This document shows positions 6,945 through 27,613 of a DNA stretch of 44,766 nucleotides, piece after piece; the first letter of the stretch is position 1, and every line of letters starts with the position of its first letter. A program made the position numbers and the translations under genes. The DNA is from a virus. The notes beneath the pieces were generated by a model, which made no database searches, was not told the origin of the DNA, and was given only the letters and a program-made list of their open reading frames with translations. The stretch lies in IMG/VR virus record IMGVR_UViG_3300037511_000572. The stretch is one strand, 5' to 3'.

Positions 6945-8062
6945 CCGTGGCCCGGGACTTCGCTATCCCGGGCGTCCGGCAGGTCTACTCGAGGTTCCCG
7001 GCCGTCTACCGCACGAGGTACTGGGACGAGGCCGTGTCCCTCTGCAGGAAGGGCGACCTGGACGGCGCGATGGCGGTGGCCAAGGGCGCCTCGCAGCGGT
7101 CGAGGCAGCTGAACGCCCAGAACATCCTGGCCCGCAAGGTGCGCGTCAACCGCATGGCCCTGTTCGCCCAGCACGCGCAGATGCAGGAGAGGGCGAAGGC
7201 GATCCTCCGGGCTGTCGCCGACGCCGCGGAGCTCGAGACGCGCAGGTGGGACGGGACGGCCAAGAGGCTGCCCGAGCTGAGGAAGGCCCTGGCCTCGGCC
7301 ACGGCGGTCATGCGCAGGTCCCTCAACAAGTGGGCCAGCGACGGCGTGTGGGACGCTATCAACCTCGGCGTGCGGAACACCGAGGACGCCATGGTGGACG
7401 TCTTCAAGGCCAACGAGGAGGCCTACCACCCGGACCTCGGCGCGGAGAGGCAGCTGATGGAGGAGAGGCTGGCGGTCGGCCTGAGCGGCAAGCTGACCGG
7501 GCGGGGCAGGCCGGAGCTGAGCAGCGCGGCCTACGACCAGCTGACCGACAAGGTCTACGAGAGGCTCGTGAAGAAGGGCCTGCAGGGGCTGAGGCCTTCG
7601 GACTCGGTGTGGGACCTGACGAAGCGCACTGAGCTGGAGATGAACCGAATCCTCCAGCGCGGCATAGCGGTGGGGACGTCCTCGAGGGACCTGGCCGGCG
7701 AGCTGCAGGACTACCTCAACCCGGACATCGGGAAGGCCGGCGCGGACCTCGGGCCGGGCGTCTACGGCAAGCCGCTGAAGAACGCCATGAGGCTGGCCAG
7801 GACGGAGACCAACAGGGCCTACGCGGCGGCGACCGCGGAGTGGGCCAAGACCCGCGGGTGGGTCAAGGGCATCATGGTGACGCTCTCCAGCGCGCACGAT
7901 CCGACCGGCGAGGAGGACGAGTGCGACAAGTGGGCCGGCAGGGTGCTGAGCCCGGACGACTTTCAGGACAAGGTCCCGTTCCACCCGCACTGCATGTGCT
8001 ACGGGACGATGGTCATAAAGGACGAGTATCTCGAGCCGGCAGGCGCGGCTCAGGAGGACTAG
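6941..8062 (+). CDS. Head morphogenesis protein (Mu F / SPP1 gp7 family)
   Basis: LARTETNRAYAAA motif and C-terminal HPHCMCY. Located after the portal. Confidence 0.8.
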   Translation: MTVARDFAIPGVRQVYSRFPAVYRTRYWDEAVSLCRKGDLDGAMAVAKGASQRSRQLNAQNILARKVRVNRMALFAQHAQMQERAKAILRAVADAAELETRRWDGTAKRLPELRKALASATAVMRRSLNKWASDGVWDAINLGVRNTEDAMVDVFKANEEAYHPDLGAERQLMEERLAVGLSGKLTGRGRPELSSAAYDQLTDKVYERLVKKGLQGLRPSDSVWDLTKRTELEMNRILQRGIAVGTSSRDLAGELQDYLNPDIGKAGADLGPGVYGKPLKNAMRLARTETNRAYAAATAEWAKTRGWVKGIMVTLSSAHDPTGEEDECDKWAGRVLSPDDFQDKVPFHPHCMCYGTMVIKDEYLEPAGAAQED

Positions 8063-8063
8063 G

Positions 8064-9008
8064 ATGAAGAAGAAGCCGGGACAGATTGACCTCCTGGACA
8101 GCGTCGAGCTGGCCGAGGCGGTCGCGTCGGGGAACATCGACTCCGACAGGGGCATCATCAAGGATGTCGTGCTCATGACGGGCGACAAGGTCTCGAAGAA
8201 CCGGACCAAGTACCTGCGCACGGCCCTGGAGCAGGCGCAGACCCGCTACGAGGGGGCCAAGATGTTCCTGGACCACCCGCGGCAGGACGACCTCCAGGCG
8301 CGCAGGGGCGCGCGCTCGGTGCGCGACCTCGGCGGGGTCTACCGGAACGTCCGGCTCAGCGAGGGCGCGCAGCCCAAGCTGGTCGGCGACCTGCACCTCA
8401 TGGAGCACAACAAGCACATCACGCTTTCGATCGCGAAGAACCCGCCCAAGGACACCGGGCTGAGCCTGCGCGACCGGGGCCTCGTGAGGGAGGAGAAGGG
8501 CGTGACCCTCGTCGAGGGCTTCGAGGGCGACGACTACAGCGTCGACTTCGTGGTCACGGCGTCCCTCAACAAGAGCCTGTTCGAATCTGCCCAACCGGGC
8601 GAAGGAGGAGGTGAACAAGAAATGGACCTGACGAAACTGACGATGGAGGACCTCAAGGCCGGCCGCAAGGACCTGGTCGAGGCGATCCAGAAGGAAGCGA
8701 CCGACGGACTGCGCAAGCAGCTCGAGGAGGCCGGGGTGAAGAGCCTGGCCGCCGACAAGCTGGTGGCGCTGGCAGAGAGCGCGATGGCCCCCGAGTTCAA
8801 GGAGGCCGTGCGCCCCGCGGTCATGGCAGCGGCCACCCTCGAGGAGGCCAAGAAGGTCATCCTCGCCCAGGAGGGCCTGTTCAAGAGCATGCAGAAGCCG
8901 GCCGGCAAGGACGGCAAGGAGCCCGCGGTGACCACGCAGGGCGCGCGAGTGGAGGAAGTGACCGAAGGCGCGACCAACGACGCCGCGTTCTTGGGCGCGT
9001 TCAAGTAA
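8064..9008 (+). CDS. Scaffolding protein, possibly fused to a prohead protease domain
   Basis: Position between the Mu-F-like protein and the capsid genes. Helical, charged, Ala/Glu/Lys-rich C-terminal half. Any protease role for the N-terminal domain is unverified. Confidence 0.5.
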   Translation: MKKKPGQIDLLDSVELAEAVASGNIDSDRGIIKDVVLMTGDKVSKNRTKYLRTALEQAQTRYEGAKMFLDHPRQDDLQARRGARSVRDLGGVYRNVRLSEGAQPKLVGDLHLMEHNKHITLSIAKNPPKDTGLSLRDRGLVREEKGVTLVEGFEGDDYSVDFVVTASLNKSLFESAQPGEGGGEQEMDLTKLTMEDLKAGRKDLVEAIQKEATDGLRKQLEEAGVKSLAADKLVALAESAMAPEFKEAVRPAVMAAATLEEAKKVILAQEGLFKSMQKPAGKDGKEPAVTTQGARVEEVTEGATNDAAFLGAFK

Positions 9009-9034
9009 CGCAAATCAAAAGGAGGAGCTAGCTC

Positions 9035-9466
9035 ATGGCAGACAAGTACACCTACCGCTCCGGCCCCAAGGACGTCGAGTTCATCCCCGTCGCCTCCGGG
9101 ACCGCGATCGAAATCGGTGACCTTCTGAAGCTGTCCAGCGGAAAGGCAGCCAAGATGGCCACCACGACCGACAACCTCGACTTCTGCGGGGTTGCGGCGG
9201 CCGCTCACCCGGCGACGGACCCCTCGGGGACCATCGCCGTGTACGCGCCGAACCTGAACACCGTGTTCGAGTACACCCTGGACGCCAGCACCGCCATCAC
9301 CTGGGGCGACCGCCTGCAGTACAACGCGGCCAAGACCCTGAAGAAGAGCACCACGGACGGCATCGCGCTGGCCGTGGAGAGCAAGCTCGCGGCCACCACG
9401 GTCCGGGTCAAATTCCTCGTGCCGGCGAAGACGGGCAACACCAACCGTATCGCCGACGCGAGCTAA
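9035..9466 (+). CDS. Head decoration-like protein (DUF2190-like)
   Basis: 143 aa directly upstream of the major capsid gene. G-rich beta pattern (IEIGDLLKLSSGKA ... FCGVAAA ... WGDRLQY) as in DUF2190. Confidence 0.6.
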   Translation: MADKYTYRSGPKDVEFIPVASGTAIEIGDLLKLSSGKAAKMATTTDNLDFCGVAAAAHPATDPSGTIAVYAPNLNTVFEYTLDASTAITWGDRLQYNAAKTLKKSTTDGIALAVESKLAATTVRVKFLVPAKTGNTNRIADAS

Positions 9467-9482
9467 GGGAGGGGACTAGCAC

Positions 9483-10589
9483 ATGAAACTGTTCGCAGTC
9501 AAAGACCTGTACGAGTCCTTCGCCCGGGCCAACGGCGCCGACCGGTCCGACCGGGACCAGCGCCGCGTGAACCGCCTGTTCACCAACAAGGTGATGGGCC
9601 TGGTGAAGGAGAAGAAGCTGGCCCTCACGGACTTCGACTTCCGTGAGCTGTGGGAGGCCCTGGTCGAGGCGCAGGCGTACCGCCTCGGGCAGCCCGTCGA
9701 GGAGACCGTTCACTCCTCGGCGTTCCCGAACATCTCCGGCGAGATTCTCTCCGCCGCGATGATCGAGGGGTACAACGCCTTCCCGACGGACGCCGACGCG
9801 CTCGTGCGCGTGGTCCCGTCGAACATGAAGGTGGAGCTGAGCGCGGGCTGGACCGCGACCGGTGCGATCCGACCGGTCAAGGAGCTCGGGAACTACGAGG
9901 AAATCGAGGCGCCGGACGAGAAGGTCGTGCTGACGGACAACAACAAGCACGGCGGCGTGATGTCTCTCACCCGCGACGCGATCAAGTTCGACAAGACCCA
10001 GAAGCTCGTGCAGAAGGCCAAGGACATCGGCCTCGAGGGCGCGCGGTACCGCTCCCAGCTCATCCTGGAGGGCGTGATCGACAAGAACTCCACCGTCTAC
10101 AACAGGGGGACCCTGTACACCGGCTCCAACCTGAAGACGGGCACGGACAGCGCGCTCGGCACCACGGGCTACGAGGCGTCGGACCTCGCCCTCATGTCGT
10201 TCACCGACGAGCAGAGCAAGCCCATCTGGGTCCTCGGGGACCGGCCGATCGTCATGGTCCCTCCCGCCCTCAAGGCGAAGGCCTGGAAGCTGAAGAACAA
10301 CGAGTACGGCCCGACCGGCACGGCCCTGGGCAACGACAAGAACTACGCGCAGAACGCGTTCGACATCGTGCTCAACCCGTACCAGACCGTCACCACCCGG
10401 TGGCACCACGGCGCGTTCAACCGCCAGTTCGTGTGGTTCGAGGTCTGGCCCGTCGAGACGTACTACCGCCTGGGTCAGGACAGCGACGACGGGTTCTTCC
10501 GGGACGTCGTGGTCTCCACCAAGATCAGCTTCTACGGTGGCGTCGGCGCGCTGGACAACAAGTACGTCATCCAGAACAACGGCGTCTGA
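9483..10589 (+). CDS. Major capsid protein (HK97-fold type)
   Basis: 368 aa with a strong RBS. Canonical position after the scaffold and decoration genes. Confidence 0.8.
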   Translation: MKLFAVKDLYESFARANGADRSDRDQRRVNRLFTNKVMGLVKEKKLALTDFDFRELWEALVEAQAYRLGQPVEETVHSSAFPNISGEILSAAMIEGYNAFPTDADALVRVVPSNMKVELSAGWTATGAIRPVKELGNYEEIEAPDEKVVLTDNNKHGGVMSLTRDAIKFDKTQKLVQKAKDIGLEGARYRSQLILEGVIDKNSTVYNRGTLYTGSNLKTGTDSALGTTGYEASDLALMSFTDEQSKPIWVLGDRPIVMVPPALKAKAWKLKNNEYGPTGTALGNDKNYAQNAFDIVLNPYQTVTTRWHHGAFNRQFVWFEVWPVETYYRLGQDSDDGFFRDVVVSTKISFYGGVGALDNKYVIQNNGV

Positions 10590-10680
10590 TCCCCTAGGAT
10601 CGGGCAAGAACACCCTCCTGCGGGTGCGGTCGATGTCCGGCTGCTGCCGCAGGAGGGAAACGACCAAGGAGGACAGACAG

Positions 10681-11340
10681 ATGAAATTCAAGACGAACAA
10701 GTTCCTGCTCGGGGGCCTGGCTCTGGCCATGGCTCTCTTCCTGTTCGACCGGTCCGCCGTCGGCGTCCGCGCGTACAACGCGGCCGTCTCAACGGTGTTC
10801 CCCGGGGACGTGCAGGTGGACGACCTCAAGCTGGCCGGAAACGACATCCTGGACAGCGGCGGGACGACCCGCATCACCACCGGCGCGACCACCACGCTGA
10901 CCGCCACGACCGTCGCCATCACCGGCAACGCCACCGTGTCCGGGACGCTCGCCGTGACCGGGGCGACCACGCAGACCGGCGCGCAGACGTTCGCCGCGCC
11001 CGTCACGTTCAGCTCCACCACCTACGCGGTGGTCCCGGCGACCGAGACCATCACCGCGGCGGCCACCATCACGGCCGACGCGTGCGGCGGGATCAAGCGC
11101 ATCAGCTCCGCCGGCAGCGTCACGACCAACACCACGAACACGTTCACGGCTCCCAGCTCCTCGAACGCCGGGTGCATCATGCTCCTGGTCAACGTGGGGT
11201 CCAACAACATCGTCCTGGACAACAACGCGCTGTTCGTGTCCGCGGCCGCGGGCGACATCACCGTCACGGCCAACGACGCCCTCATCGTGGCGACGGACGG
11301 GAACAAGTGGTACCAGATCAGCGCGCTGCTCGCCAATTAG
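10681..11340 (+). CDS. Fibre-like Thr/Ala/Gly-rich protein with an N-terminal signal peptide or membrane anchor
   Basis: AAGGAGG RBS. N-terminus MKFKTNKFLLGGLALAMALFLF, then GNATVSGTLAVTGATTQTG-type beta-helix repeats. Confidence 0.6.
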   Translation: MKFKTNKFLLGGLALAMALFLFDRSAVGVRAYNAAVSTVFPGDVQVDDLKLAGNDILDSGGTTRITTGATTTLTATTVAITGNATVSGTLAVTGATTQTGAQTFAAPVTFSSTTYAVVPATETITAAATITADACGGIKRISSAGSVTTNTTNTFTAPSSSNAGCIMLLVNVGSNNIVLDNNALFVSAAAGDITVTANDALIVATDGNKWYQISALLAN

Positions 11341-11350
11341 GAGGCAGGCC

Positions 11351-11752
11351 ATGAAGAAGCTCATCCTCCTGCTGGCGCTGCTCGGGCCCGTTTGGGCGCC
11401 GGCCGTGCTGCGCGCGGACGACGCGGTGTCCATCGGCACGGGGGCCCGGGTCCAGGTGTCGACGTCGACTCCCACCCTGCTCTTCGCGGCCAACCGCTCG
11501 GCCAAGGGCACTAAGATCAAGGTCAACCCGATCGACGGGACCCAGACCGCGGCCTCCGCGGACGCGATCCTGGTCGGGACCTCGTCGAGCGCGTCGGACT
11601 ACTCGACGTCCCTGACCACCGGGACCTTCCGTGTGCACGCCGGGGACAAGTGGTTCGCGCTGGACGGGCCCACGTCGTTCTACCAGGGGCCGCTGTACGG
11701 CCTCGCGGTGTCGACCGGCCCGCTGAACGTCGACAGGCTGCAGACGAAGTAG
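11351..11752 (+). CDS. Small secreted protein (signal peptide)
   Basis: AGGAGG RBS. N-terminus MKKLILLLALLGPVWAPAVLRADDA has a typical Sec cleavage motif. Confidence 0.6.
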   Translation: MKKLILLLALLGPVWAPAVLRADDAVSIGTGARVQVSTSTPTLLFAANRSAKGTKIKVNPIDGTQTAASADAILVGTSSSASDYSTSLTTGTFRVHAGDKWFALDGPTSFYQGPLYGLAVSTGPLNVDRLQTK

Positions 11753-12763: not shown

Positions 12764-13186
12764 ATGCTTACTGTGGAAGAGGCGATCGTCGCAAGGCTAG
12801 CCGCTGACACGACCCTCGCGAACCTGCTGGGGGCGTCTGGCGGGGACGCCAGGATTTACCACGCCCTAGAGGCCATCCAGCCTAAGACGCAGTGCGTGAC
12901 ATACATGCACGTCACGAGCGTGCCGGGCGACATCAACGGCCTGAACGTGGCGGTGCAGGACGAACTGTACGTCTTCAACATATACCACAAGCAGTACGAG
13001 AAGGTCAAGGAGAGGATTTACTCCCTCCTGCAGAACTACCGGTTCCCCACCCCGAGCGACGCCGGCATCAAGTCGTGCGTGTGGGAGTGGGAGGGGCCGG
13101 ACGAGTTCGACGAGCGGCTGCAGGTCGGGCTGAAGAGGGCCCGCTTCCGGCTGTCGGTTGTAAGGTCGGCGCAGGCGCCGGTCTAA
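12764..13186 (+). CDS. Tail terminator / tail completion protein (DUF3168-like)
   Basis: 140 aa immediately upstream of the tube gene. N-terminus VEEAIVARLAADTTLANLLG is typical of DUF3168. Confidence 0.6.
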   Translation: MLTVEEAIVARLAADTTLANLLGASGGDARIYHALEAIQPKTQCVTYMHVTSVPGDINGLNVAVQDELYVFNIYHKQYEKVKERIYSLLQNYRFPTPSDAGIKSCVWEWEGPDEFDERLQVGLKRARFRLSVVRSAQAPV

Positions 13187-13209
13187 AATCCAGGAGGAGG
13201 AATAACAAA

Positions 13210-13971
13210 ATGGGAATCGGATACGCGGAACCGAAGCGACTGCTCCTCGGGCCCGGCGACCTCTACATCGACGACATTTTAGTCGGCCAGGTGAAGGACA
13301 GCGTCGAGGTCAAGTACAACCCGACCTACGCATACCAGCGGCCGGGCAACTCGATCGTCGACGTGAAGGGCGAGCGGACGGCCGAGGAGTTCACGATGAA
13401 GGCGAAGATTTGCGACTTCAAGGTGTCGCAGCTTCGCCGGGCCATGGGCATCAACGAGTCCATCCTGTCGGGCTCCATGACCCTTCGCAAGCAGGAAATC
13501 CTCCAGCTGTCCGGCACCACCAACGTGACCCTGGCCGAGACGGCCGTCGCGGGCACGATGAAGGTGGCGAAGCTGGACCGTGCGACCAACTACGCATCCG
13601 GCACCGACTACTCGGCCACGTCCACCACGATCGCCCGCAAGACGGGCGGCGCCGTGACGTCCGGGCAGTTCGTGATCGTGGAGTACGACTTCAGCGACTC
13701 CGCGGCCAACGGCGTCCGGTTCGGCGGCGAGAAGACGAAGGTCAACACCTTCGAGGTGAACTTCGTCCACAAGCTGTCCAACGGCAAGCTGGTCCAGGTG
13801 ACGATGTACAAGGCCATGTTCATGGGCGACCTGACCCTGGTCTTCGCCGAGAAGTCCAGCGGAAACTACACCCTGCACGAGGCCGAGTTCAAGGCGCTCG
13901 CGGACCTGACCAAGCCGGAGGGGCGCAACCTCGGAGAAATCATCGAGGAAGACCCCACGGCCGCGTCGTAA
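13210..13971 (+). CDS. Major tail (tube) protein
   Basis: 253 aa with RBS GGAGGAGG. Position after the terminator-like protein. Contains the S/T-rich patch YASGTDYSATSTTIARKTGGAVTSG. Confidence 0.7.
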   Translation: MGIGYAEPKRLLLGPGDLYIDDILVGQVKDSVEVKYNPTYAYQRPGNSIVDVKGERTAEEFTMKAKICDFKVSQLRRAMGINESILSGSMTLRKQEILQLSGTTNVTLAETAVAGTMKVAKLDRATNYASGTDYSATSTTIARKTGGAVTSGQFVIVEYDFSDSAANGVRFGGEKTKVNTFEVNFVHKLSNGKLVQVTMYKAMFMGDLTLVFAEKSSGNYTLHEAEFKALADLTKPEGRNLGEIIEEDPTAAS

Positions 13972-14028
13972 GCCGGAAAGATAAACCGAGACGCCGACCC
14001 GCGAGGGCGGAAAGGGAGGATGGAGCCA

Positions 14029-15123
14029 ATGTCAGAGCCCACCCAGAAGTCACTAGTGGAAGAGCAGCTGAAGGACTTGAAGGACGCGGGCCTGCCCGTC
14101 AGCAAGGGCATCCGCACGTTCAAAGACAACCAGCGCAAGACGAGCAAGTTCAACGAGAGGGTCCTAACGTTCTGGCTGCCGCAGTGGGCCAGGCAGGCGG
14201 CGATGAACTTCAAGGACATCTCCGGCGCGCCGAGCATGGGCTGGCTGAGGGCCTCCGCGAAGGGTCTGCCCGTGGTCGTGTGCGGCATCGGGCCGTCGCT
14301 CGACGGGGACCTCGAGACCCTGCGCAAGGCCCAGTCCAACCTCATCATCGTCGCCACCGACGCGGCGGTTCGACCCCTCCTGGCCGCTGGCGTGAAGCCG
14401 CACCTGGCCGTAAACTTCGACTGCAAGCAGAAGCAGCACACCCTCTTCGACGGGCTCAACAGCCTGACGTGGGACATCCCGCTGCTCGCCAACTCGTGCG
14501 CGCACCCGGACATGCTATCGGCCTGGCTCGGCCCGAAGCTCTACTTCAACATGCAGCACTTCGGGGTCGACTTCATGGACGCGGTGCTGCCGAACATCTA
14601 CCCGGAGTTCCAGCCCATGTCCAACCACGGGACCGTCGGCAACTCGGCGATCCTCGTGGCCTACCAGATGGGAGCGCGCCACATCATCCTCTCCGGCATG
14701 GACCTGTGCTACCAGAAGGTCGGCGACGGGTTCAAGTACCGCTGCAGGGACCACGCCTGGCGCGAGGCCGACGAGCAGGCCGGCCTACCAGCGGGCTGGG
14801 TCGAGAAGGAGAACAAGGTCCTCTACGACAACGACGACAGGCTCGCGCACACGTTCGAGGTCAAGGTCAAGGAGCGGGCGTTCCTGGTGGACGACCCACT
14901 CGACCAGTACCGCAAGATGGCCCTCGGGATCATAGGCTCCCTAGGCAACGTCGACGTAGTAGACTGCGCGCCGGACGGGATACTGAAGGCCTCCGGGGTC
15001 CGCGGCATGACGATAGGGGACGCGGTCACGGAGTTCGCGGCGCGCCCCATTGAGCCAGGAGAGGCCACGATTCTGCACCTGCCTCGGCTACTGCCGAGAG
15101 CAAAAGACGCCAAAGGCGCTTAG
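14029..15123 (+). CDS. Maf / MptE-like (DUF115) putative glycosyltransferase
   Basis: VVVCGIGPSLD ... LIIVATDAAVRPLLAAGVKPHLAVNFD ... GTVGNSAILVAYQMGARHIILSGMDLCY matches the DUF115 core. The ATG at 14029 has better RBS spacing than the track start at 14020. Confidence 0.75.
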   Translation: MSEPTQKSLVEEQLKDLKDAGLPVSKGIRTFKDNQRKTSKFNERVLTFWLPQWARQAAMNFKDISGAPSMGWLRASAKGLPVVVCGIGPSLDGDLETLRKAQSNLIIVATDAAVRPLLAAGVKPHLAVNFDCKQKQHTLFDGLNSLTWDIPLLANSCAHPDMLSAWLGPKLYFNMQHFGVDFMDAVLPNIYPEFQPMSNHGTVGNSAILVAYQMGARHIILSGMDLCYQKVGDGFKYRCRDHAWREADEQAGLPAGWVEKENKVLYDNDDRLAHTFEVKVKERAFLVDDPLDQYRKMALGIIGSLGNVDVVDCAPDGILKASGVRGMTIGDAVTEFAARPIEPGEATILHLPRLLPRAKDAKGA

Positions 15124-15133
15124 GAGGAGACAC

Positions 15134-15322
15134 ATGGAAGCGATCAAGGAGACGCCGCCGCCCATCGAGAGCGTGGCCGCGGCGCAGAAGAAGGAGAAGC
15201 TGGTGTTCAACCCCGGGCAGCTCGTGCCGCTCAACGGGGTCTGGTTCCAGATCGAGCGGGTCGAGAAGGAGGGCCTGTTCCTCAAGGCCGTCGGGTTCAC
15301 GAAGAACAGGGGGCGGAAATGA
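15134..15322 (+). CDS. Small hypothetical protein (62 aa) inside the glycosylation cassette
   Basis: AGGAGGAG RBS. Overlaps the next ATG (ATGA). Confidence 0.5.
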   Translation: MEAIKETPPPIESVAAAQKKEKLVFNPGQLVPLNGVWFQIERVEKEGLFLKAVGFTKNRGRK

Positions 15323-16332
15323 ACATCGTACACGTGACCACGACCGACCCCGCCGGCTCGGTCATCAACTTCGTGAACGCGGTCAACCGGCACACGCCGC
15401 ACCGCGCGAGGCTCATCACCACGAACAGGATCGAGGAGTACGACTTCCCGGCCGACCTACACTGGATCATGGACGGGGGCGACGAGATGTTCGCCCTCCT
15501 GGAGCAGGCGGACGTCATCCACCTGCACAAGGTGGACAACGAGTTCGAGCTAGAGGTCGACATGCCCAAGCTCGGCGTAGTCCGCAAGCTGAGCATCGCG
15601 GAGCTCCTCAAGCAGTTCCCGCAGAAGAAAGTGGTCTACCACATCCACGGCCACCCCTACGAGAGGGGCAACGTGGAGGAGAACGCGGCCAACTACAAGG
15701 CCCTCGGCGGGAGGGTGCTTTGCTCGACGCCGGACCTGGAGGAGATGTACAAGCCGCATTACGACGGCGTCCAGTACTTCCCGAACTGCGTGCCGGTGAA
15801 CGACGTGACCTACCTGCCCAGGCCGGTGGACGCGCCGATCCTCGGCTCAGACGGCGTTGCGCGGTACCTGGTCTCGCAGACGCCCACGCACGCGGTCCTG
15901 AAGAACTGCCACGTGATCGAGCAGGCCGTGCGGAACGTGGCAAAGAAGCACCCCGTGGCGTACGACAAGGCCTGGAACCTGCCCCAGCACTTCGCACTCC
16001 GGCGCAAGCGCATCTCCTCGGTGGTGTTCGACCACATCGAGGGGTATTACGGGCTTTCCAGCCTAGAGGGCCTGAGCATGGGCAAGCCCGTCATCGCCGG
16101 CCTGTCCGACTACACCATCTGCTCGATCGCGTCGTTCTTCGGGATCACCCCGCAGGACCTGCCGTGGGTCGTGGCGAGGGACCAGCAGCAGATCGAGGAG
16201 AAGCTGGACCTCCTGTTCAGCGACGAGGCGTACCGGCATGCGGCCGGCAAGGCGTCCCGCAAATTCATGGAGGAGGTCTGGAGTGATCGAGTTATCGGAC
16301 AACGACTGGCCGCATTCTACTCCTCCCTGTAA
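15319..16332 (+). CDS. GT-B fold glycosyltransferase (GT4-like)
   Basis: C-terminal FDHIEGYYGLSSLEGLSMGKPVIAG resembles the GT4 E-x7-E region. About 337 aa with a two-Rossmann-domain layout. Confidence 0.8.
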   Translation: MNIVHVTTTDPAGSVINFVNAVNRHTPHRARLITTNRIEEYDFPADLHWIMDGGDEMFALLEQADVIHLHKVDNEFELEVDMPKLGVVRKLSIAELLKQFPQKKVVYHIHGHPYERGNVEENAANYKALGGRVLCSTPDLEEMYKPHYDGVQYFPNCVPVNDVTYLPRPVDAPILGSDGVARYLVSQTPTHAVLKNCHVIEQAVRNVAKKHPVAYDKAWNLPQHFALRRKRISSVVFDHIEGYYGLSSLEGLSMGKPVIAGLSDYTICSIASFFGITPQDLPWVVARDQQQIEEKLDLLFSDEAYRHAAGKASRKFMEEVWSDRVIGQRLAAFYSSL

Positions 16333-17050
16333 GGGGGAGCCGCCGGCCAACACGGTCGGGATCGTAATCCCCGTCCGCGACGGCCTGAAGTTCCTGAAGC
16401 TGAGCCTGTACTCCGTGCTATACTTCACGCCGCACCCGTACATGCTGACCATCGTGGACAACATGAGTGGGCTGAAGACCAAGAAGTTCATACGGTCATT
16501 CGAGCAGAATCACCCGACGGACGTCCTGCGCTACGACGAGCCGTTCAACTTCGCGGCCCAGGCCAACCTCGGCCTCCGGAACGTGTTCTCCAGGGGGGCG
16601 CAGTTCGGGCTCGTCCTGAACGCGGACACCATCGTCGAGCCGGACTGGCTGGGGCTGCTGGTGGAGCGCATGCTCCAGGTCAAGGAGGCCGGCGCGATCG
16701 GGCCCGTGTCCCAGGTCGGCAACCCGGAGCAGACCCTGCAGGGCAAGCGCGGGGAGCGGCTGATGCAGGTGCGCCGGCTGTCCGGCTTCTGCATGATGGT
16801 CCGCAAGGCCGCGTTCGAGCAGTCCGGCGGGTTCGACGAGTCCTTTGCCGGCGGCGGGTTCGAGGACTGGGACCTGTCGCAGCGACTGCTGGACCTCGGG
16901 TGGAAGCTGCTGGTCGACGAGCGCGTGCTGGTGTGGCACTTCCACAAAGCGTTCCGCAGGTCCCCGGAGCACGACGTGGCCATGCGCACGAACGAGCGGC
17001 GGTTCTTCGAGAAGCACCCGAAGGTCGCGGAGGAGGTGCGCCGTGCATAG
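16283..17050 (+). CDS. GT-A fold glycosyltransferase (GT2 family)
   Basis: GIVIPVRDG, LNAD (DxD-like), GFCMMVRKAAFEQSGGFDE and FEDWDLSQRL motifs. GTG start with GGAGGAGG upstream. Confidence 0.8.
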   Translation: MIELSDNDWPHSTPPCKGEPPANTVGIVIPVRDGLKFLKLSLYSVLYFTPHPYMLTIVDNMSGLKTKKFIRSFEQNHPTDVLRYDEPFNFAAQANLGLRNVFSRGAQFGLVLNADTIVEPDWLGLLVERMLQVKEAGAIGPVSQVGNPEQTLQGKRGERLMQVRRLSGFCMMVRKAAFEQSGGFDESFAGGGFEDWDLSQRLLDLGWKLLVDERVLVWHFHKAFRRSPEHDVAMRTNERRFFEKHPKVAEEVRRA

Positions 17051-17573
17051 GCAGGCGCTGGACTTCCTGGAGCGGATGAAGCAGCAGTATTGGGACGTGT
17101 TCAAGGCCAAGCGCGTGCTCGAGCTCGGCAGTCTGGACATGAATGGCTCGCCCAGAGAATTCTTCTGGGCCCCGCAGGACTACGTCGGGGTGGACTGGCG
17201 CGAGGGCAAGGGCGTCGACGAGGTCAGCATGGCCCACGAGTACCGTGGCCGGCACGACGAGTACTTCGACTGCGTGGTGTCCACCGAGATGCTGGAGCAC
17301 GACCCGAAGTGGAGGGAAACCCTCCAGCGCGCGGTCGAGCTGCTCCGACCGGGCGGCCACATTGTGCTGACGATGGCCGGAACCGGCAGGCCTCCTCACG
17401 AAGTGGGCGTGGCCCCGGGCGAGAATCCGTACTACGAGAACCGGACCATCGAGGATATCGTCCAGCACGTCACGTCGCTCGCGCACTTCAGGATGGTGCA
17501 CGCAGAGGACAACCCGAACCCGGGCGACTCGTACTTTCTGTTCTACTGCAAGACCAAAAAGGAGGGCCTCTAA
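17043..17573 (+). CDS. Class I SAM-dependent methyltransferase
   Basis: VLELGSLDMNG (motif I-like), DCVVSTEMLEH and LLRPGGHIVLT. GTG overlaps the upstream stop. Confidence 0.7.
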   Translation: MHRQALDFLERMKQQYWDVFKAKRVLELGSLDMNGSPREFFWAPQDYVGVDWREGKGVDEVSMAHEYRGRHDEYFDCVVSTEMLEHDPKWRETLQRAVELLRPGGHIVLTMAGTGRPPHEVGVAPGENPYYENRTIEDIVQHVTSLAHFRMVHAEDNPNPGDSYFLFYCKTKKEGL

Positions 17574-17574
17574 A

Positions 17575-17973
17575 ATGGGAGAGCCTGTCAAGGACCCGTT
17601 CGTGACGGAGTCCATCACCGTGAAAATACACGATCAAGAGCTGGTGCTGTCACCGCTGCCGTTCAAGAAGTTCCGGGAGGCGATCAGCCTCGCGCGCGGG
17701 GCGTTCGCCCTGGCGCAGACGGCAGCCGAGCAGAACCCCATGGGGATCATAGAGGACGTGCCGACCATCATCATGGCCGAGTTCTGCAAGATCGCGCCCA
17801 TCATATTTTCCAGGCCGGACCTTCCGCCGGAGTGGTTCGACGAGCACGTGTCCGTGCCGCTTGCGCAGCACTGCCTGACCGAGGCGGCGAAGGTGAACGG
17901 GGTGGGTGATTTTTTATCCTATCTCCGGAAGGCCGGGACGCCGACGGCCAAGCCGGAGGCGCAGACGAAGTAG
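17575..17973 (+). CDS. Tail assembly chaperone (gpG-like)
   Basis: 132 aa directly upstream of the tape measure. Contains the slippery heptamer TTTTTTA near its 3' end. Confidence 0.75.
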   Translation: MGEPVKDPFVTESITVKIHDQELVLSPLPFKKFREAISLARGAFALAQTAAEQNPMGIIEDVPTIIMAEFCKIAPIIFSRPDLPPEWFDEHVSVPLAQHCLTEAAKVNGVGDFLSYLRKAGTPTAKPEAQTK

Positions 17974-18203
17974 GCTTTGCTGGCATCCTGCACCTGTTCT
18001 TCACGGCCTACAAGTGGACGCTGCGCGAGGTGGACGAGCTGACGTGGCCGCAGCTCATGGCCCTGAAGAAGCAGATAGAGAGGCGCCCGCCGAACGACGT
18101 GGTTGTGGGCTGGGCGGAGAGCAAGCCGAAGGAGCAGCCCGCCCAGAGCCTGGGGCTGCCGGTCAAAAAGGGAAAAGTAAAGCGGAGGAAAGATGGCGAT
18201 TGA
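17575..18203 (+). CDS. Tail assembly chaperone frameshift fusion (gpGT-like; -1 shift at 17910-17916)
   Basis: The -1 frame is open from 17916 to the TGA at 18201-18203 with high third-position GC. It encodes ...GFAGILHLFFTAYKWTLREVDELTWPQLMALKKQIERRPP... and ends 10 nt into the tape measure gene. Confidence 0.7.
17910..17916 (+). promoter_or_regulatory. -1 programmed ribosomal frameshift slippery site (T TTT TTA)
   Basis: An X XXY YYZ heptamer in the zero frame (gaT TTT TTA) of the chaperone gene. Confidence 0.7.
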
Positions 18204-20055
18204 CGTAGGCGAACTCCTAGTATCCATCAGGGCCGACCTCACCGACCTCAAGAAGGGTCTGGAGGAGTCGAACAAGAAGGTGTCCGAGTTCGGGGCCGGC
18301 ACGGTCGCGAAGGGCGCCCTCATCGCCGACGCCGTGAAGACCGCCGGGATGGCCGTGCTCAAGTTTGGCATGGACAGCCTGAAGGCCTTCGGCGACAGCC
18401 AGGCCGCAGTGTCGAAGCTGGAGCTGGCCCTTAAGAATAACGGGCAGGAGGTCAAGACCACCTCCAAGCAGTTACAGGACTATGCCACCTCCCTGCAGAA
18501 GGTGACCACGTTCTCAGACGAGGCGATCGTCGAAACCGAGGCAATGCTGGCTAACTTCGGCCTCGCCGGCGAGGAGCTGAAGTCCACCACGCGGGCCGCA
18601 CTAGACCTGTCAAAAGGCCTCGGCATAGACCTCCGGACAGCGACCCTCATGCTCGGCAAGGCGGCCGAGGGCGAGACCGGGACACTGGCCAGATACGGGA
18701 TCATCATCGGCGACAACGTGCCGAAGGCCCAGGCGTTCGAGAAGGTCCTCCAGCAGGTCAATACGCGGTTCGGCGGGGCGGCGCAGAACGACCTGGCCAA
18801 CATCAATGGCAAAATGGAGAACTTCGCCAACCGGATCAACGACATCCAGGAGAAGATAGGCAAGTTCCTCTTGCCTGCTTTCGACTTCTGGGCGCAGAAG
18901 GCGGACACCCTCATCGCAGCGATGGACAGGCTGACCGGGGCCGGGGAGAAGGAGGCGCGCGGGCGCGAACTGACCATAGAGGGCTTGAAGCGCGAGCAGC
19001 AGCTCATCATCCAGGGCGCCAAGGAGCGCGGAAGCTACCGCAACGGGGTGCTGTCCCTGACGGACGCGGAGCAGAAAAGGCTAAACCTAATCGGCAGGTC
19101 CATGGCGCGCGAGCGGCAGATGCTGGCGGCCGAGGAGAAGACGAACGAGAAGAAGGTCGAGTCCGTCAAGAGCAGGGTGAAGCAGATCGCGCGACTAAAC
19201 GCCGAGGAGCAGGCCGCGGAGGATAAGAAGAACGCGAATCAGCTAGCCAAGCTAGACGCCAAGACCGCACAGATGCTCGGGAAGCAGATGACCTACGCCT
19301 CCCGCATGATTATGCTACGGATGACATTCAATGAGCAGGACACCGCGCTGCTCACTGCATATCTGGATGAGACGGAGCAGGTGGAGCTAGCATCGCACCT
19401 CAAGCAGCTGGAGGAACATGGCAAGTTCAATGACGCGAAGCTCCTCAAGGAGCAGACGGTCCGCAATGCCAACTCGAAGGCGGCGGAAGATGAGCTCAAG
19501 GAGACAAAGCGCCGGAATACGGAGCGGGCGCAGAATTTCCAGTCCACCTTGAACTTCATATCCTCCCTGGCGCAGGAGAAGAATAAGGTGCTGGCCGGGA
19601 TTGGCAAGGCCTCGGCCGTGTCTGTGGCCACGATTGACACCTTCCAGGCGGCCAACAAGGCCCTGGCCAGCGCGCCCCCGCCTTTCAACTTCGGGCTTGC
19701 GGCTGCGGTCACTGCGGCGGGCATAGCGAATGTCTCCAGGATAGTCGGGGTGAAGCTGGCCCGCGGCGGGGTGGTAGAGCCGCGGAGCGGCGGCACGTCG
19801 GCGGTCATAGGCGAGGCCGGGCAGGCCGAGGCGGTGATCCCGCTCGAGGACCCGCGGACAACCAAGTTACTGGGCAAGGCGCTGGCAGGCACGCGCGGCG
19901 GGGTGACGCTGCAATTCAACATATCCGGGCACTTCATCGAGGGTAGCAAGTCGAAAATGCAGAGGATGATCCGGGAGGCCGTGATCCCGGAGATACACAG
20001 GTACACGGAAATACGTCCGGTGAGCGAGTTCAACCGGCGCAGGGGGCAGGCATAG
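18193..20055 (+). CDS. Tape measure protein
   Basis: 620 aa, helical and low-complexity, immediately after the G/GT genes. Confidence 0.85.
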   Translation: MAIDVGELLVSIRADLTDLKKGLEESNKKVSEFGAGTVAKGALIADAVKTAGMAVLKFGMDSLKAFGDSQAAVSKLELALKNNGQEVKTTSKQLQDYATSLQKVTTFSDEAIVETEAMLANFGLAGEELKSTTRAALDLSKGLGIDLRTATLMLGKAAEGETGTLARYGIIIGDNVPKAQAFEKVLQQVNTRFGGAAQNDLANINGKMENFANRINDIQEKIGKFLLPAFDFWAQKADTLIAAMDRLTGAGEKEARGRELTIEGLKREQQLIIQGAKERGSYRNGVLSLTDAEQKRLNLIGRSMARERQMLAAEEKTNEKKVESVKSRVKQIARLNAEEQAAEDKKNANQLAKLDAKTAQMLGKQMTYASRMIMLRMTFNEQDTALLTAYLDETEQVELASHLKQLEEHGKFNDAKLLKEQTVRNANSKAAEDELKETKRRNTERAQNFQSTLNFISSLAQEKNKVLAGIGKASAVSVATIDTFQAANKALASAPPPFNFGLAAAVTAAGIANVSRIVGVKLARGGVVEPRSGGTSAVIGEAGQAEAVIPLEDPRTTKLLGKALAGTRGGVTLQFNISGHFIEGSKSKMQRMIREAVIPEIHRYTEIRPVSEFNRRRGQA

Positions 20056-20748
20056 ATGGCCTCGACAAACTCGGTATTCGCGAACGACACGAGCATAGCC
20101 TTGGACTGGAACAGCGTGTCCGGGGCGAACCTCTATCACCTCCAAGTAGGCACGGAGCCGGACTTCTCTGGCTCCCTGCTAGTCAACGATAGCGCCCTCG
20201 CGACCTCGGACAAGTCCTTCACGGACTCTGGGTTGGACGACGCCAAGAGGTTTTGGCGCTGGAGATATTCGACCGACGCGGGCACGACATGGTCCGAATG
20301 GTCCGAGGTCGGGAACTACTGGCTCAACACCGCCGGAGCGGCCGACATCACTCCGGCCCAGGGGAAATGGGTGATGTTCGACCCGGACTCCGTGACGGAC
20401 ATGTACACGTTCGTGGACTACCCCATGGACAAGATAGTGGACGAGCAGCTTTACCGGGTGAAAGACCGCAACCGCCGAGGCAACATGTTGACGGAGTGGT
20501 ACAACAGCAAGGCGAGGATCACCCTGCAGTTCGCGGAGACCCTATTCATGACGCACGAGCAGATGCGTGCCTTGAAGAGGTTCAACCTGGAAATTAAGAC
20601 GTTCTTCCTGGCCGTGTACAAGTACAACGGCGTGGACTATGTTCCGCACATATGGAAGGTCGTATTCTCCGAGGACCCCGAGATGAGCATGCTTGCCGCG
20701 GGGCGCGAAGATTTGTTCATAGGCGAGCTGACATTTGAGGAGGTCTGA
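20056..20748 (+). CDS. Tail protein with an N-terminal FN3-like domain (possible distal tail protein)
   Basis: First gene after the tape measure. N-terminus IALDWNSVSGANLYHLQVGTEPDFSG ... WRWRYSTDAGTTWSEWS looks FN3-like. Confidence 0.55.
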   Translation: MASTNSVFANDTSIALDWNSVSGANLYHLQVGTEPDFSGSLLVNDSALATSDKSFTDSGLDDAKRFWRWRYSTDAGTTWSEWSEVGNYWLNTAGAADITPAQGKWVMFDPDSVTDMYTFVDYPMDKIVDEQLYRVKDRNRRGNMLTEWYNSKARITLQFAETLFMTHEQMRALKRFNLEIKTFFLAVYKYNGVDYVPHIWKVVFSEDPEMSMLAAGREDLFIGELTFEEV

Positions 20749-20749
20749 G

Positions 20750-22456
20750 ATGAACTTCAAGAAACTTATCATAGTGGCCGCCCTGGCCCTCGGATTCGCG
20801 GGCATAACACGGGGTGCGGACTTTCCGAGCACGGTCAGCTCGGACAGTACCCTGTTGAACGCCAAGAACAACTGCGGGACGATCCTAACGGCGAGTGTGA
20901 CGAGCGGCGCGACGTCGCTCAGCGTGTCAGATACCTCATGCTTCGCGACGGTCGGATATGTGACCCTGGATGAGGAGGCCATCCTCTGCACTGGGAAAAC
21001 CGCAACCTCTTTCACCGGATGCACGCGAGGGGCAGACGGCACGACGGCAGTATCCCACACAAACGGGACCCCGGCCTACGCGTTCATAGTGGCCGCGCAC
21101 CACAACCTACTGAAGAACGAACTGGTGGCCATCAGTCAATACCTTCTACAGGGCGACCAGGTACACATCACGACCTCCAGCACCCCGGACATGGTCGGCC
21201 TCGGGACGTCTACCCCGGCATACCACATGGACATATGGGATAACGGAACGAACGGACCGCTGGCCGTGAGCACAAGTACGACGGGATCGCCGAAGGCTCT
21301 GGCAGTCAACACCTCCGGCAACGTGACCATGAACGGGTCCTTGTCCGCCGGCGCCGGGACCTTCACGAGCGTTACGGACTCCGGCCTGACGAGCGGACGC
21401 GTCCCAGTGGCAGGCTCCGCGGGGTTACTCGGCGACTTCTCCGGGTTTACACATAACGGCACCACGCTGACCGTGGCCGGTCTGGTCAACACGGGCAACG
21501 CAACCACGGCGGGCAACTCGACTGTGACTGGCACACTGGCCTCCGGGGCGCATACGGCATCGAGCCTGACGGCATCGTCCCTGACCAGTGGGAGGGTGGT
21601 GACCGCAGGGACCGGGGGATTGCTGCAGGACTTCTCTGGCTTCACGCACAATGGAACGACCCTAACCGTGGCGGGGCTGGTGGATACTGGCTCGGGCACG
21701 GTAGCAGGGTCCCTGTCGGTGACCGGCGCCCTGACCGGGTCGACCCTGGATACGGGGCAGGGGGCCAATGAGCTCTATGCGATGAACCAGAACGTCCAGA
21801 CAGGGGATTCCCCGACCTTTGCAGGCGCGACATTCTCCGGCCTGACGGCGAGCCGGGCCGTGCAAACGAATGGATCTAAGGCGCTGGAATCAAGTGTCGT
21901 GACCACGACCGAACTGGGATACTTGAGCGGTGTGACGTCCGCAATCCAAACCCAGATCAGCGCGATCACGGCCACTCCAGCAGGCGCGATTATCATGTTC
22001 GCGTCCTCAACGGCTCCCAGTGGATGGTATATCTGCGACGGGTCGACGAAGTCCAGGACCACAGACGCAACACTCTACACCGCTATAGGAACGACGTTCG
22101 GGACTGGTGACGGATCGACAACATTCAACCTCCCGGACTTTCGCGGCGTCTTCCCAAAAGGATCAGGGACGACGACAAGGGCGGCGGGTGTAGACGCCAG
22201 CGGAAATGCCTATGCCGGGACGTTGGGCACCTACTCCACAGATAAATTCCAAGGACACTATCACAGCGTCCCGCGAAGAACGGACCGGAATACGGCCAGT
22301 GGGGGTTCCGACAAGCCATTATGGGATACCTCCGGGAACCAGGATACTCTCGGAACCACGTCTGCACCGCTCACGGACGGAACGAATGGAACGCCGAGAA
22401 CAGGGCACACTACGGAACCCCAAAGTCTTGGGATCAACTTCATCATCAAATCATAA
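20750..22456 (+). CDS. Tail fibre with a C-terminal phage tail-collar domain and an N-terminal signal-peptide-like segment
   Basis: GAIIMFASSTAPSGWYICDGS ... YTAIGTTFGTGDGSTTFNLPDFRG is the collar-domain signature. Fibre N-domain motif TGCTRGADGTTAVSHTNG. N-terminus MNFKKLIIVAALALGFAGITRGA. Confidence 0.8.
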   Translation: MNFKKLIIVAALALGFAGITRGADFPSTVSSDSTLLNAKNNCGTILTASVTSGATSLSVSDTSCFATVGYVTLDEEAILCTGKTATSFTGCTRGADGTTAVSHTNGTPAYAFIVAAHHNLLKNELVAISQYLLQGDQVHITTSSTPDMVGLGTSTPAYHMDIWDNGTNGPLAVSTSTTGSPKALAVNTSGNVTMNGSLSAGAGTFTSVTDSGLTSGRVPVAGSAGLLGDFSGFTHNGTTLTVAGLVNTGNATTAGNSTVTGTLASGAHTASSLTASSLTSGRVVTAGTGGLLQDFSGFTHNGTTLTVAGLVDTGSGTVAGSLSVTGALTGSTLDTGQGANELYAMNQNVQTGDSPTFAGATFSGLTASRAVQTNGSKALESSVVTTTELGYLSGVTSAIQTQISAITATPAGAIIMFASSTAPSGWYICDGSTKSRTTDATLYTAIGTTFGTGDGSTTFNLPDFRGVFPKGSGTTTRAAGVDASGNAYAGTLGTYSTDKFQGHYHSVPRRTDRNTASGGSDKPLWDTSGNQDTLGTTSAPLTDGTNGTPRTGHTTEPQSLGINFIIKS

Positions 22457-26740: not shown

Positions 26741-27049
26741 GTGGCCGAGTTGAACGACCAGGACGTGCGCGACATGAGGGACGGGTTCAAGCTTCTGGCC
26801 CGCGTAGACCAGAAACTGTCGGATCACCTTGAATGGTCGAAGACGATGAGCGAGAAGAGGGACAAGCAACTTGACGACTTGGACAAGAGGCTCAAGCCCG
26901 TCGAGGAGGCAGTCGGAGGCGTGCGCACTTTGGTCAAGGCTATGGCCTGGATAGGCGGTGGCGCGGGCGCGGTCGGCGGTGTCAGCTCATGGGCATTCTG
27001 GGATCACATCCGCAGCGCGATCAAGCACTACCTGTCAAACGCGCAGTAG
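26741..27049 (+). CDS. Membrane protein, holin candidate
   Basis: GTG start with a GAGGGGGA RBS. Charged coiled-coil N-terminus plus a single C-terminal hydrophobic segment (LVKAMAWIGGGAGAVGGVSSWAFW). Immediately upstream of the endolysin. Confidence 0.4.
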   Translation: MAELNDQDVRDMRDGFKLLARVDQKLSDHLEWSKTMSEKRDKQLDDLDKRLKPVEEAVGGVRTLVKAMAWIGGGAGAVGGVSSWAFWDHIRSAIKHYLSNAQ

Positions 27050-27059
27050 GAGGAGCGCC

Positions 27060-27611
27060 ATGGAAATACCGTTCCTGCAGGCCAAGTTCTTCACGTCTCC
27101 GGCGGAGCCTAGGAAAATAGAGCTGGTCGTCCTGCACAGTGCAGTGGTGCCGGAGCTGTTCGATAGGGCCGAGTGGCTCATGAAGCTCTGCGCCACAAAC
27201 GACAGGAAGGCCTCCTGGCATTACGCGGTTGACGGAGACTCGATCACCCAGTCGGTGAGGGAGGAGGACATCGCGTGGCACGCGCCGGGCGCGAACCAGC
27301 GCGGGATCGGGATCGAGCTCGCGACGGCCGGCATGCCCACGAGAGCCGACTGGGAGGATCAGTACTCGAGGAAGATGCTCGAGCTGGCCGCGTTCCTGAC
27401 GGCGGGCATCTGCGTGCGGCGGAGTATCTCGCCGTTCTTCGTGGACGCGGCTGGGTTAATCGAGGGCAGGCGCGGTATTACCACGCACGCCGAGGTCAGC
27501 AAGGCGTTCAAACGGTCGGACCACATGGACCCCGGGCCGGCGTTCCCGATGGAATCCTTCCTGGCCGACGTCTCTGCGAGGATGTCCGCCGGCAACTACC
27601 AAGGAGACTGA
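27060..27611 (+). CDS. Endolysin, N-acetylmuramoyl-L-alanine amidase (Amidase_2 / PGRP-like)
   Basis: VVLHSA ... WHYAVDGDS ... WHAPGANQRGIGIEL ... THAEV ... DHMDPGP motifs. Confidence 0.85.
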   Translation: MEIPFLQAKFFTSPAEPRKIELVVLHSAVVPELFDRAEWLMKLCATNDRKASWHYAVDGDSITQSVREEDIAWHAPGANQRGIGIELATAGMPTRADWEDQYSRKMLELAAFLTAGICVRRSISPFFVDAAGLIEGRRGITTHAEVSKAFKRSDHMDPGPAFPMESFLADVSARMSAGNYQGD

Positions 27612-27613
27612 CC

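Follow-up and report, generated by a model that had tools for sequence, protein, structure and literature searches.

A Maf-like gene cassette beside the tail tube gene of uncultured phages, a candidate module for virion glycosylation

A five-gene cassette between the tail tube and tail chaperone genes

The window analyzed here, a 44,766-nucleotide stretch of viral DNA (IMG/VR record IMGVR_UViG_3300037511_000572), represents approximately one complete phage genome, and identical proteins are also encoded on a 44,785-bp contig. On its + strand, a cassette of five co-oriented genes extends from the gene for the major tail (tube) protein (13210-13971) to the tail chaperone genes (17575-18203), encoding in order a Maf-like protein, a small open reading frame (ORF) of 62 aa, a protein resembling glycosyltransferase family 4 (GT4), a glycosyltransferase of family 2 (GT2), and a methyltransferase. 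The genes are tightly packed, with overlaps of 4 nt (15319/15322), 50 nt (16283/16332), and 8 nt (17043/17050), and the last gene abuts the chaperone gene (17573/17575). The guanine-plus-cytosine (GC) content of the cassette is 0.63–0.65, compared with 0.63–0.67 in the flanks, and no promoter- or terminator-like sites were detected on the + strand between 12500 and 18500. An earlier interpretation made from the letters alone (hereafter the sequence-only reading) had described five same-strand genes with abutting or overlapping ends between a major tail protein and a G/GT chaperone pair; this arrangement was borne out, with the small ORF placed at 15134-15322, and both flanks were confirmed by family membership of the tail protein (phrog_807) and by a slippery heptamer in the chaperone gene (T_TTT_TTA, 17910-17916).

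The first gene of the cassette (14029-15123, + strand) encodes a 364-aa protein with the Maf/DUF115 core, here called mini-Maf, which is predicted to be a Ser/Thr O-glycosyltransferase using an ulosonic acid activated with cytidine monophosphate (CMP). Its ATG at 14029 sits 9 nt after the Shine-Dalgarno sequence GGGAGG, and an alternative in-frame ATG at 14020 abuts that sequence. Residues 60–233 matched the Pfam MptE-like family PF01973 (E = 8.6e-34, 117.2 bits against a 34.6-bit cutoff), and an NCBIfam match to FlagModPseD (8.9e-7) lay far below its cutoff. The sole sequence match in the PDB found by phmmer was the Maf protein of Magnetospirillum magneticum (5MU5, E = 4e-5). The same structure was the best Foldseek match (9.6e-10 over 324 columns) of the AlphaFold model, which had a predicted local distance difference test score (pLDDT) of 90.8, and was followed by the archaeal MptE pyrophosphokinase 8sd5 (3e-5 over ~200 columns). 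A study of Maf 5MU5 reports E324 and D415 as essential (bioRxiv 10.1101/2020.06.03.131540). These residues align to D134 and D228 of mini-Maf (numbered from the ATG at 14020; D131 and D225 from 14029), and both aspartates are invariant in 40 family members sharing 33–73% identity; a lack of catalytic residues, which the sequence-only reading had named as a finding that would count against it, was therefore not observed.

The relationship to Maf was examined by an exhaustive hidden Markov model search of 1.84 billion representative sequences, which returned ~15 tight relatives of mini-Maf and then thousands of proteins of ~600–650 aa, aligned at their residues ~190–480. The domain Maf_flag10_N (PF20157) was present in five of eight of these larger proteins that were sampled, and had no Pfam match in mini-Maf. 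Because the profile neighbors align over residues ~190–480 and the phage protein lacks PF20157, mini-Maf appears to correspond to the Maf catalytic core minus the canonical N-terminal domain, the role of which is presumably flagellin recognition. By sequence profile and by modeled structure, Maf is a nearer neighbor of mini-Maf than are the pyrophosphokinases, which form another branch of PF01973.

The GT4-like gene (15319-16332, + strand) encodes a protein of 337 aa, with a predicted role in glycan extension. By sequence it matched Glycos_transf_1 only below threshold (E = 0.015, 15.2 bits against a 26.4-bit cutoff). Its AlphaFold model (pLDDT 94.9) has the two-Rossmann GT-B fold, and the top 20 Foldseek matches, with E values from 3e-11 to 2e-8, included BshA (3e-11), GlgM, PglA, MshA, PimA, HepE, and the MMP mannosyltransferase. 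A family profile of 46 sequences matched the C-terminal domains of PglA and PimB' (E ~3e-5). Within the family, E250 (in L-E-G), K195, and K230 are invariant; in the C-terminal nucleotide-sugar motif of the EX7E type, of which E250 would be the second Glu, most members carry Gln in place of the first Glu, with one additional residue in the spacing. The protein is thus assigned by its modeled structure as a putative GT4 retaining GT-B transferase. A nucleotide-sugar hydrolase of the NeuC/LegG/PseG type would accord with the linkage of its bacterial homologs to NeuB, described below, but is less likely, since GT4 transferases rank above UDP-GlcNAc 2-epimerases by fold (3e-11 compared with 2e-8 or weaker) and the sequence profile matches GT4 enzymes only.

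The GT2 gene (16283-17050, + strand) encodes a 255-aa glycosyltransferase, predicted to be of the GT-A type, which matched PF00535 (1.6e-10, 41.6 bits against a 23.3-bit cutoff) and in which the DXD-type acidic residues D59, D115 (in N-A-D), and D185 show no variation among 16 orthologs. Its best NCBIfam match, below threshold, was the small-molecule glycosyltransferase MftF (2.3e-14). The last gene (17043-17573, + strand) encodes a class I S-adenosylmethionine (SAM)-dependent methyltransferase of 176 aa, with matches to Methyltransf_23 (1.5e-9, 38.2 bits against a 27-bit cutoff) and to the SAM-methyltransferase family phrog_32762 (1.9e-29); E27-x-G29 of motif I and D51 are conserved in five orthologs, and the predicted reaction is O-methylation of a glycan, or alternatively methylation of a protein. 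The 62-aa ORF (15134-15322, + strand) had no Pfam or PHROG match. It is not conserved and appears to occupy a variable accessory slot: weak relatives were found only in the related loci L002 and L015, and elsewhere the slot is empty or holds a methyltransferase. All proteins of the cassette are soluble, with a maximum 19-residue hydropathy below 1.6, and the hydropathy scan revealed no membrane-like segments. The four domain assignments of the sequence-only reading thus hold, although Pfam supported three of them above cutoff (PF01973, PF00535, and Methyltransf_23) and failed to do so for Glycos_transf_1, where the GT4 assignment comes from the fold; the Foldseek comparison agreed with it both for mini-Maf, nearest to 5MU5, and for the GT4-like protein, nearest to GT4 enzymes.

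The 50-nt overlap of the GT4-like and GT2 genes, in different frames, is a feature of its own. It is kept in L001, L002, L003 (47 nt), L007, L008, and L009, and was present in every relative examined, even at ~45–50% protein identity, which suggests translational coupling or another constraint on the junction.

Distribution of the cassette, its bacterial relatives, and the surrounding genome

To describe the distribution of the cassette, we assembled 24 related uncultured loci from metagenomes and IMG/VR, reached separately through the Maf-like, GT4-like, and tube proteins by alignment-based scans, and surveyed their gene content by tblastn. The Maf-like gene lies directly 3' of the tube gene in 24/24 loci, with tube identities ranging from 78% to 45%; a DUF115 gene beside a tail gene, for which the sequence-only reading had proposed a survey, is therefore a constant feature of these phages, and the same synteny, together with the matching GC content, agrees with its view that the cassette is no recent insertion. 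GT2 was found in every locus long enough to reach it, and the GT4-like gene is absent from seven. The methyltransferase slot is filled by two unrelated types in three positions, or by none: a Methyltransf_23 type either follows GT2 or separates the Maf-like gene from the GT4-like one, and a type resembling Methyltransf_24 and rhamnosyl-O-methyltransferase occurs after GT2, with loci carrying either, both, or neither. Among the surveyed loci, cassette genes occur nowhere else in the genome. The identities of the tube and Maf-like proteins co-vary (r = 0.88, n = 19, a descriptive figure only). This co-variation and the fixed synteny indicate that the cassette has long belonged to the tail module and has been passed on vertically with it. 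An invariant core of tube, mini-Maf, and GT2, accompanied by interchangeable tailoring genes, is what would be expected, judging by sequence, of a glycan locus under diversification.

One relative, L007, carries two unrelated methyltransferases, a Methyltransf_23 type between the Maf-like and GT4-like genes (8439-9029) and a Methyltransf_24/rhamnosyl-O-methyltransferase-like type after GT2 (10744-11313). The pair suggests two different methylations of the product.

Outside these loci, relatives are scarce. The Maf-like, major tail, major capsid, and GT4-like proteins had no tblastn match among 50,697 GenBank phage records, and blastn of positions 13000-20000 against cultured phages returned only a 120-nt similarity to the tape measure genes of Bordetella phages. 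In 185,579 bacterial species genomes, the major tail protein profile detected no relative and no prophage copy, and the Maf profile gave just two distant matches. The lineage is uncultured and probably strictly lytic.

Bacterial homologs of the GT4-like protein share 35–42% identity with it over the full length, and those linked to NeuB were found at four distinct loci, in Desulfofustis glycolicus (L005, with a near-identical copy, L006) and at L010, L011, and L012. The homolog lies directly 3' of a gene for a 627–630-aa NeuB-SAF-AP_endonuc_2 fusion, with a helix-turn-helix (HTH) gene ahead of the fusion; the exception is L010, where a few genes separate the homolog from an upstream, unfused NeuB gene of 205 aa. 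The NCBIfam NeuB model matched the fusion of L005 at 8e-98, and a CMP-sugar synthetase gene comes next in two of the bacterial loci. The Desulfofustis island also contains a gene for a 564-aa MptE-like (Maf-type) protein, a GT2 gene, and a second CMP-sugar synthetase gene, near FlhB and PilZ genes. We considered the Maf-type and GT2 genes of this island as a source of the phage genes and rejected them, the pairwise matches being negligible and only the GT4-like gene being homologous. The link between phage and island is therefore one of functional context and not of capture of a whole island.

In many cases, genes for radical-SAM, DegT, carbamoyltransferase, and Asn-synthase proteins come after the bacterial trio of HTH/C2185-like_N gene, NeuB-SAF-AP_endonuc_2 fusion, and GT-B homolog (L005 7397-11684; L010, L011, and L012 ~7400-11000). 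From its gene content, the trio looks like an undescribed pathway for a modified nonulosonate.

No homologs of NeuB, CMP-synthetase, DegT aminotransferase, or epimerase were found in the window or in the 24 related phage loci; without precursor genes in the phage, the host would have to supply whatever ulosonic-acid donor is used. Maf enzymes O-glycosylate Ser and Thr residues of flagellin and accept pseudaminic acid, legionaminic acid, N-acetylneuraminic acid (Neu5Ac), and 3-deoxy-D-manno-oct-2-ulosonic acid (Kdo) as donors (bioRxiv 10.1101/2020.06.03.131540). Because Maf enzymes accept Kdo too, any Gram-negative host could meet the need from its CMP-Kdo pool. The description of the cassette as flagellin-island-like is apt in part: the catalytic residues, the proximity to Maf, and the NeuB-linked homologs of the GT4-like protein speak for it, but no flagellin or nonulosonate genes lie near mini-Maf, the neighbors of which are tail genes.

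The late operon, on the + strand, begins with terminase and portal genes and continues with a capsid protein of the Phage_capsid_4 type, connectors, the 253-aa major tail protein, and the five cassette genes. It then proceeds to the tail chaperone (17575-17973), the tape measure (18193-20055), and distal tail and fibre proteins. Tail assembly chaperone G (17575-17973, + strand) and its –1 frameshift extension GT (17575-18203) bound the cassette downstream: the heptamer T_TTT_TTA at 17910-17916, a canonical slippery site for –1 frameshifting, gives access to the frame that terminates at 18203, and the G-T fusion overlaps the start of the tape measure gene at 18193. The heptamer makes the chaperone assignment solid. 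The tape measure protein (620 aa, + strand) was assigned by position and by blastn similarity to annotated Bordetella phage tape measure genes. Replication genes, encoding PolA, primase, AAA_24, a thymidylate synthase (TS) homolog, a dihydrofolate reductase (DHFR)-like protein, and Vsr, lie on the – strand. No tRNA genes were detected in the phage genome, and no holin or spanin was identified in it. An Amidase_2 endolysin ORF (26958-27611) is overlapped for more than 300 nt by a DUF1353 ORF in another frame (27275-28006); probably one start choice is wrong, or else the overlap is genuine. Hydrophobic N-termini resembling signal peptides, unusual among phage structural proteins, occur on three proteins of the virion module: 10681-11340 (MKFKTNKFLLGGLALAMALFLF), 11351-11752 (MKKLILLLALLGPVWAPAVLRADD), and 20750-22456 (MNFKKLIIVAALALGFAGITRGADF), the last being a 573-aa fibre with a tail-collar domain. 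The first two of these proteins are weakly conserved among the relatives.

Candidate acceptor, proposed mechanism, and alternatives

The major tail protein (253 aa, 13210-13971, + strand), identified by its position after the head-tail connectors and before the chaperone and tape measure genes, is a candidate acceptor of the glycan. Of the 31 members of its family, 18 match phrog_807 (‘major tail protein with Ig-like domain’), and its profile had no match among PDB sequences. Ser and Thr positions conserved across the family concentrate at residues 101–150, including the YASGTDYSATSTTIARKTGGAVTSG patch, and some family members have Ser/Thr/Gly-rich insertions just upstream of this patch. Such a stretch fits a surface-exposed domain, by analogy with the glycosylated outer domains of flagellin. 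The tube protein is the most likely acceptor on sequence grounds, being always adjacent to the Maf-like gene, belonging to an Ig-domain family, and having a conserved Ser/Thr cluster. The sequence-only reading had proposed two targets, this protein and the Thr-rich fibre-like protein encoded at 10681-11340. The former is favored; the latter was detectable in 5/24 relatives and full-length in three (L001, L002, and L015), and because it is missing from most relatives, in none of which the Maf-like gene has been lost, it is not a conserved partner of the cassette.

Taking sequence and model evidence together, we favor by a modest balance the view that the cassette is a soluble cytoplasmic module that O-glycosylates a virion protein, the Ig-domain tube protein being the likeliest target. 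The enzymes would be produced late, co-transcribed with the tail genes, and the virion protein would be decorated before or during tail assembly. A cytoplasmic setting has a counterpart in Maf itself, which, according to PMC4065374, acts in the cytoplasm on flagellin before export. Mini-Maf would draw on the host for a CMP-activated ulosonic acid, either Kdo or a nonulosonic acid such as pseudaminic or legionaminic acid, and attach it to Ser or Thr, the probable attachment sites being tube protein residues ~101–150. GT2, together with the GT4-like protein where present, would lengthen the glycan using host nucleotide sugars, and the methyltransferase would cap a sugar hydroxyl. The outcome would be a glycan-coated tail tube, comparable to a flagellar filament. 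The analysis itself establishes the gene content, the folds, the conservation of catalytic residues, the constant synteny, and the lack of membrane segments and of precursor genes. We infer from these that the enzymes are active, which protein receives the glycan, which sugars are donated, in what order the reactions run, and what the phage gains, which could be shielding, stability, or adhesion. The most specific form of the idea, that the whole lineage of lytic siphoviruses carries a minimal Maf ‘sialylating’ the Ig-like domain of the tube with nonulosonic acid or Kdo from the host, followed by GT2/GT4 extension and a methyl cap, is offered tentatively, as a possibility that we would not yet expect to hold in full.

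Several points weigh against virion glycosylation by the cassette. Mini-Maf lacks the N-terminal domain of Maf, and PF01973 also includes pyrophosphokinases such as MptE. The NeuB linkage of the GT4-like homologs could indicate a role in a precursor pathway and not in transfer, the methyltransferase might act on protein, and the supply of the donor sugar depends on the host. Adjacency of the major tail protein gene is no proof that its product is the acceptor, the capsid protein, decoration protein, and Ser/Thr-rich fibres being likewise conserved.

The last of these points leads to the alternative that survives best, namely an acceptor other than the tube: the capsid or decoration protein, the Ser/Thr-rich fibres (20735-22456 and 24534-26270), or several of these. 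Both capsid and tube are modified in mycobacteriophages, according to PMC12619734. The fibres have the highest Ser+Thr content (0.29 and 0.27, compared with 0.16 in the major tail protein), and the major capsid protein, the decoration protein, and the fibre N-termini are also conserved in the lineage. However, the major tail protein alone invariably adjoins the Maf-like gene and combines an Ig-domain family with a conserved Ser/Thr cluster, and the Thr-rich protein at 10681-11340 is missing in most cassette-bearing relatives; we regard a different acceptor as unlikely, although worth keeping in mind.

A further step down in probability, and clearly improbable in our estimate, is remodeling of a host structure (flagellin, pili, S-layer, lipopolysaccharide, or capsule), which might serve to exclude superinfecting phages or to keep progeny from adhering to debris. 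Flagellin is the usual Maf substrate, serotype-converting phage glycosyltransferases are well known, and bacterial homologs of the GT4-like protein occur in host surface-glycan or flagellar islands. Set against this, the cassette lies within the late tail operon of phages for which no prophage copies were detected in 185,579 species genomes, its genes were never found elsewhere in the genome in the surveyed loci, and it encodes no membrane protein, flippase, or lipid-carrier enzyme. Mini-Maf also lacks the N-terminal domain that is found in the canonical Mafs that modify flagellin.

We give little credence to a role other than glycosyl transfer for the MptE-like protein, whether as a pyrophosphokinase, as some other member of PF01973, or as a factor in tail assembly, in a block that makes a small molecule or serves assembly. 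The family is named after archaeal HPPK; MptE (8sd5), SteA, and thiamine pyrophosphokinase are among the lower fold matches of mini-Maf; and the NCBIfam model nearest to the GT2 protein, MftF, acts on small molecules. These leads are outweighed by the advantage of 5MU5 over MptE, which amounts to four orders of magnitude and covers 324 columns compared with ~200, by the invariance of both Maf catalytic residues in the family, by canonical Mafs being the profile neighbors, and by the constant company of glycosyltransferases around the Maf-like gene.

Least credible of all, and close to dismissal, is the alternative raised in the sequence-only reading that the transferases act on hypermodified DNA bases made with the TS homolog (34643-35506): phage glycosyltransferase arrays acting on hydroxymethylated pyrimidines are known, and T4 alpha-glucosyltransferase is among the distant GT-B fold matches (rank 44, E = 1e-6), but the TS homolog followed by a DHFR-like/RibD_C gene is the normal pairing of the thymidylate (dTMP) cycle, and the cassette lies in the late structural operon on the strand opposite to the replication module. 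Enzymes of the Maf type O-glycosylate proteins, and the GT-B fold comparison ranks GT4 enzymes, not DNA glucosyltransferases, at the top.

The replication module itself encodes a Vsr-type T:G mismatch endonuclease (33617-34096, – strand; TIGR00632, 2.7e-33, above cutoff). Its neighbors are the RibD_C/DHFR-like reductase (34068-34844, – strand) and the TS homolog (34643-35506, – strand), both below NCBIfam equivalog cutoffs. A phage Vsr hints at an interplay with cytosine methylation.

Were glycosylation of the tail tube by the cassette true, it would extend virion glycosylation to an unrelated environmental lineage, so that it would not be restricted to actinobacteriophages, with an enzyme class borrowed from flagellin glycosylation. 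It would take Maf-type protein glycosylation beyond flagella for the first time and would provide the first phage particle decorated with an ulosonic acid. A Maf core of 364 aa that acts on an acceptor other than flagellin would help to define substrate recognition by Maf, and the donor promiscuity of Maf makes mini-Maf a possible tool for protein glyco-engineering. Glycan coats on tails would also bear on how stable phages are, how they adsorb, whether antibodies or lectins recognize them, and how host range is predicted.

Comparison with known glycosylation systems

To our knowledge, phage-encoded virion glycosylation has been demonstrated only for mycobacterial phages, and Freeman et al. 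in 2023 reportedly saw little sign of it elsewhere. The limited literature that we searched contained no description of a phage Maf/DUF115 protein, and none of glycosylated phage tails beyond the mycobacteriophage work. The statement in the sequence-only reading that no Maf-type system had been described in a phage stands as far as describing papers go, but uncharacterised MptE-like proteins of uncultured phages are already among the UniProt/BFVD entries.

The Maf (motility-associated factor) flagellin glycosyltransferases, which transfer nonulosonic acids (M. magneticum 5MU5, Aeromonas caviae Maf1, Campylobacter jejuni PseD/Maf4, and those of Geobacillus kaustophilus and Clostridium botulinum), have in common a DUF115/MptE-like core. 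Like the phage cassette, these systems comprise a soluble cytoplasmic enzyme encoded beside the gene for the subunit of a helical polymer, with extra glycosyltransferases and methyltransferases. The phage protein shares ~25–30% identity with bacterial Mafs over the core. It differs from them in having 364 aa instead of ~600–650, in lacking Maf_flag10_N and part of the C-terminal region, in being encoded away from flagellin and nonulosonate genes, and in its presumed acceptor, the tail tube.

The bacterial NeuB-linked GT-B genes, from Desulfofustis glycolicus and three metagenomic loci, are homologous to the GT4-like gene, and one of the islands also contains a Maf-type gene and a GT2 gene; they differ in being chromosomal and in lying behind NeuB and an HTH gene. 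Among eukaryotic viruses, A064R of chlorovirus PBCV-1 combines two rhamnosyltransferase domains with a 2-O-methyltransferase domain and functions in capsid glycosylation (PMC7019647). As in the system proposed here, glycosylation of a structural protein is virus-encoded, cytoplasmic, and independent of host machinery, and the glycan bears an O-methyl cap. PBCV-1 differs in being a eukaryotic giant virus, in attaching N-linked glycans to its major capsid protein, and in having no Maf-type enzyme.

The closest parallel among phages comes from the actinobacteriophages, of which Cluster O, for example, reportedly has three tandem glycosyltransferases and an O-methyltransferase (Freeman et al. 2023, Cell Host Microbe 31:1216). 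We know of no Maf-type enzyme in these systems. Their glycosyltransferases and O-methyltransferase place O-linked glycans on capsid and tail-tube subunits in the cytoplasm, as described in PMC11600133 and PMC12619734. Both these systems and the present cassette consist of phage-encoded glycosyltransferases and a methyltransferase. Unlike them, the cassette encodes Maf-like and GT4-like proteins without a tblastn match in the 50,697 GenBank phage records (GT2 was not searched), and it occupies a fixed position between the tail tube and chaperone genes in an unrelated, uncultured lineage.

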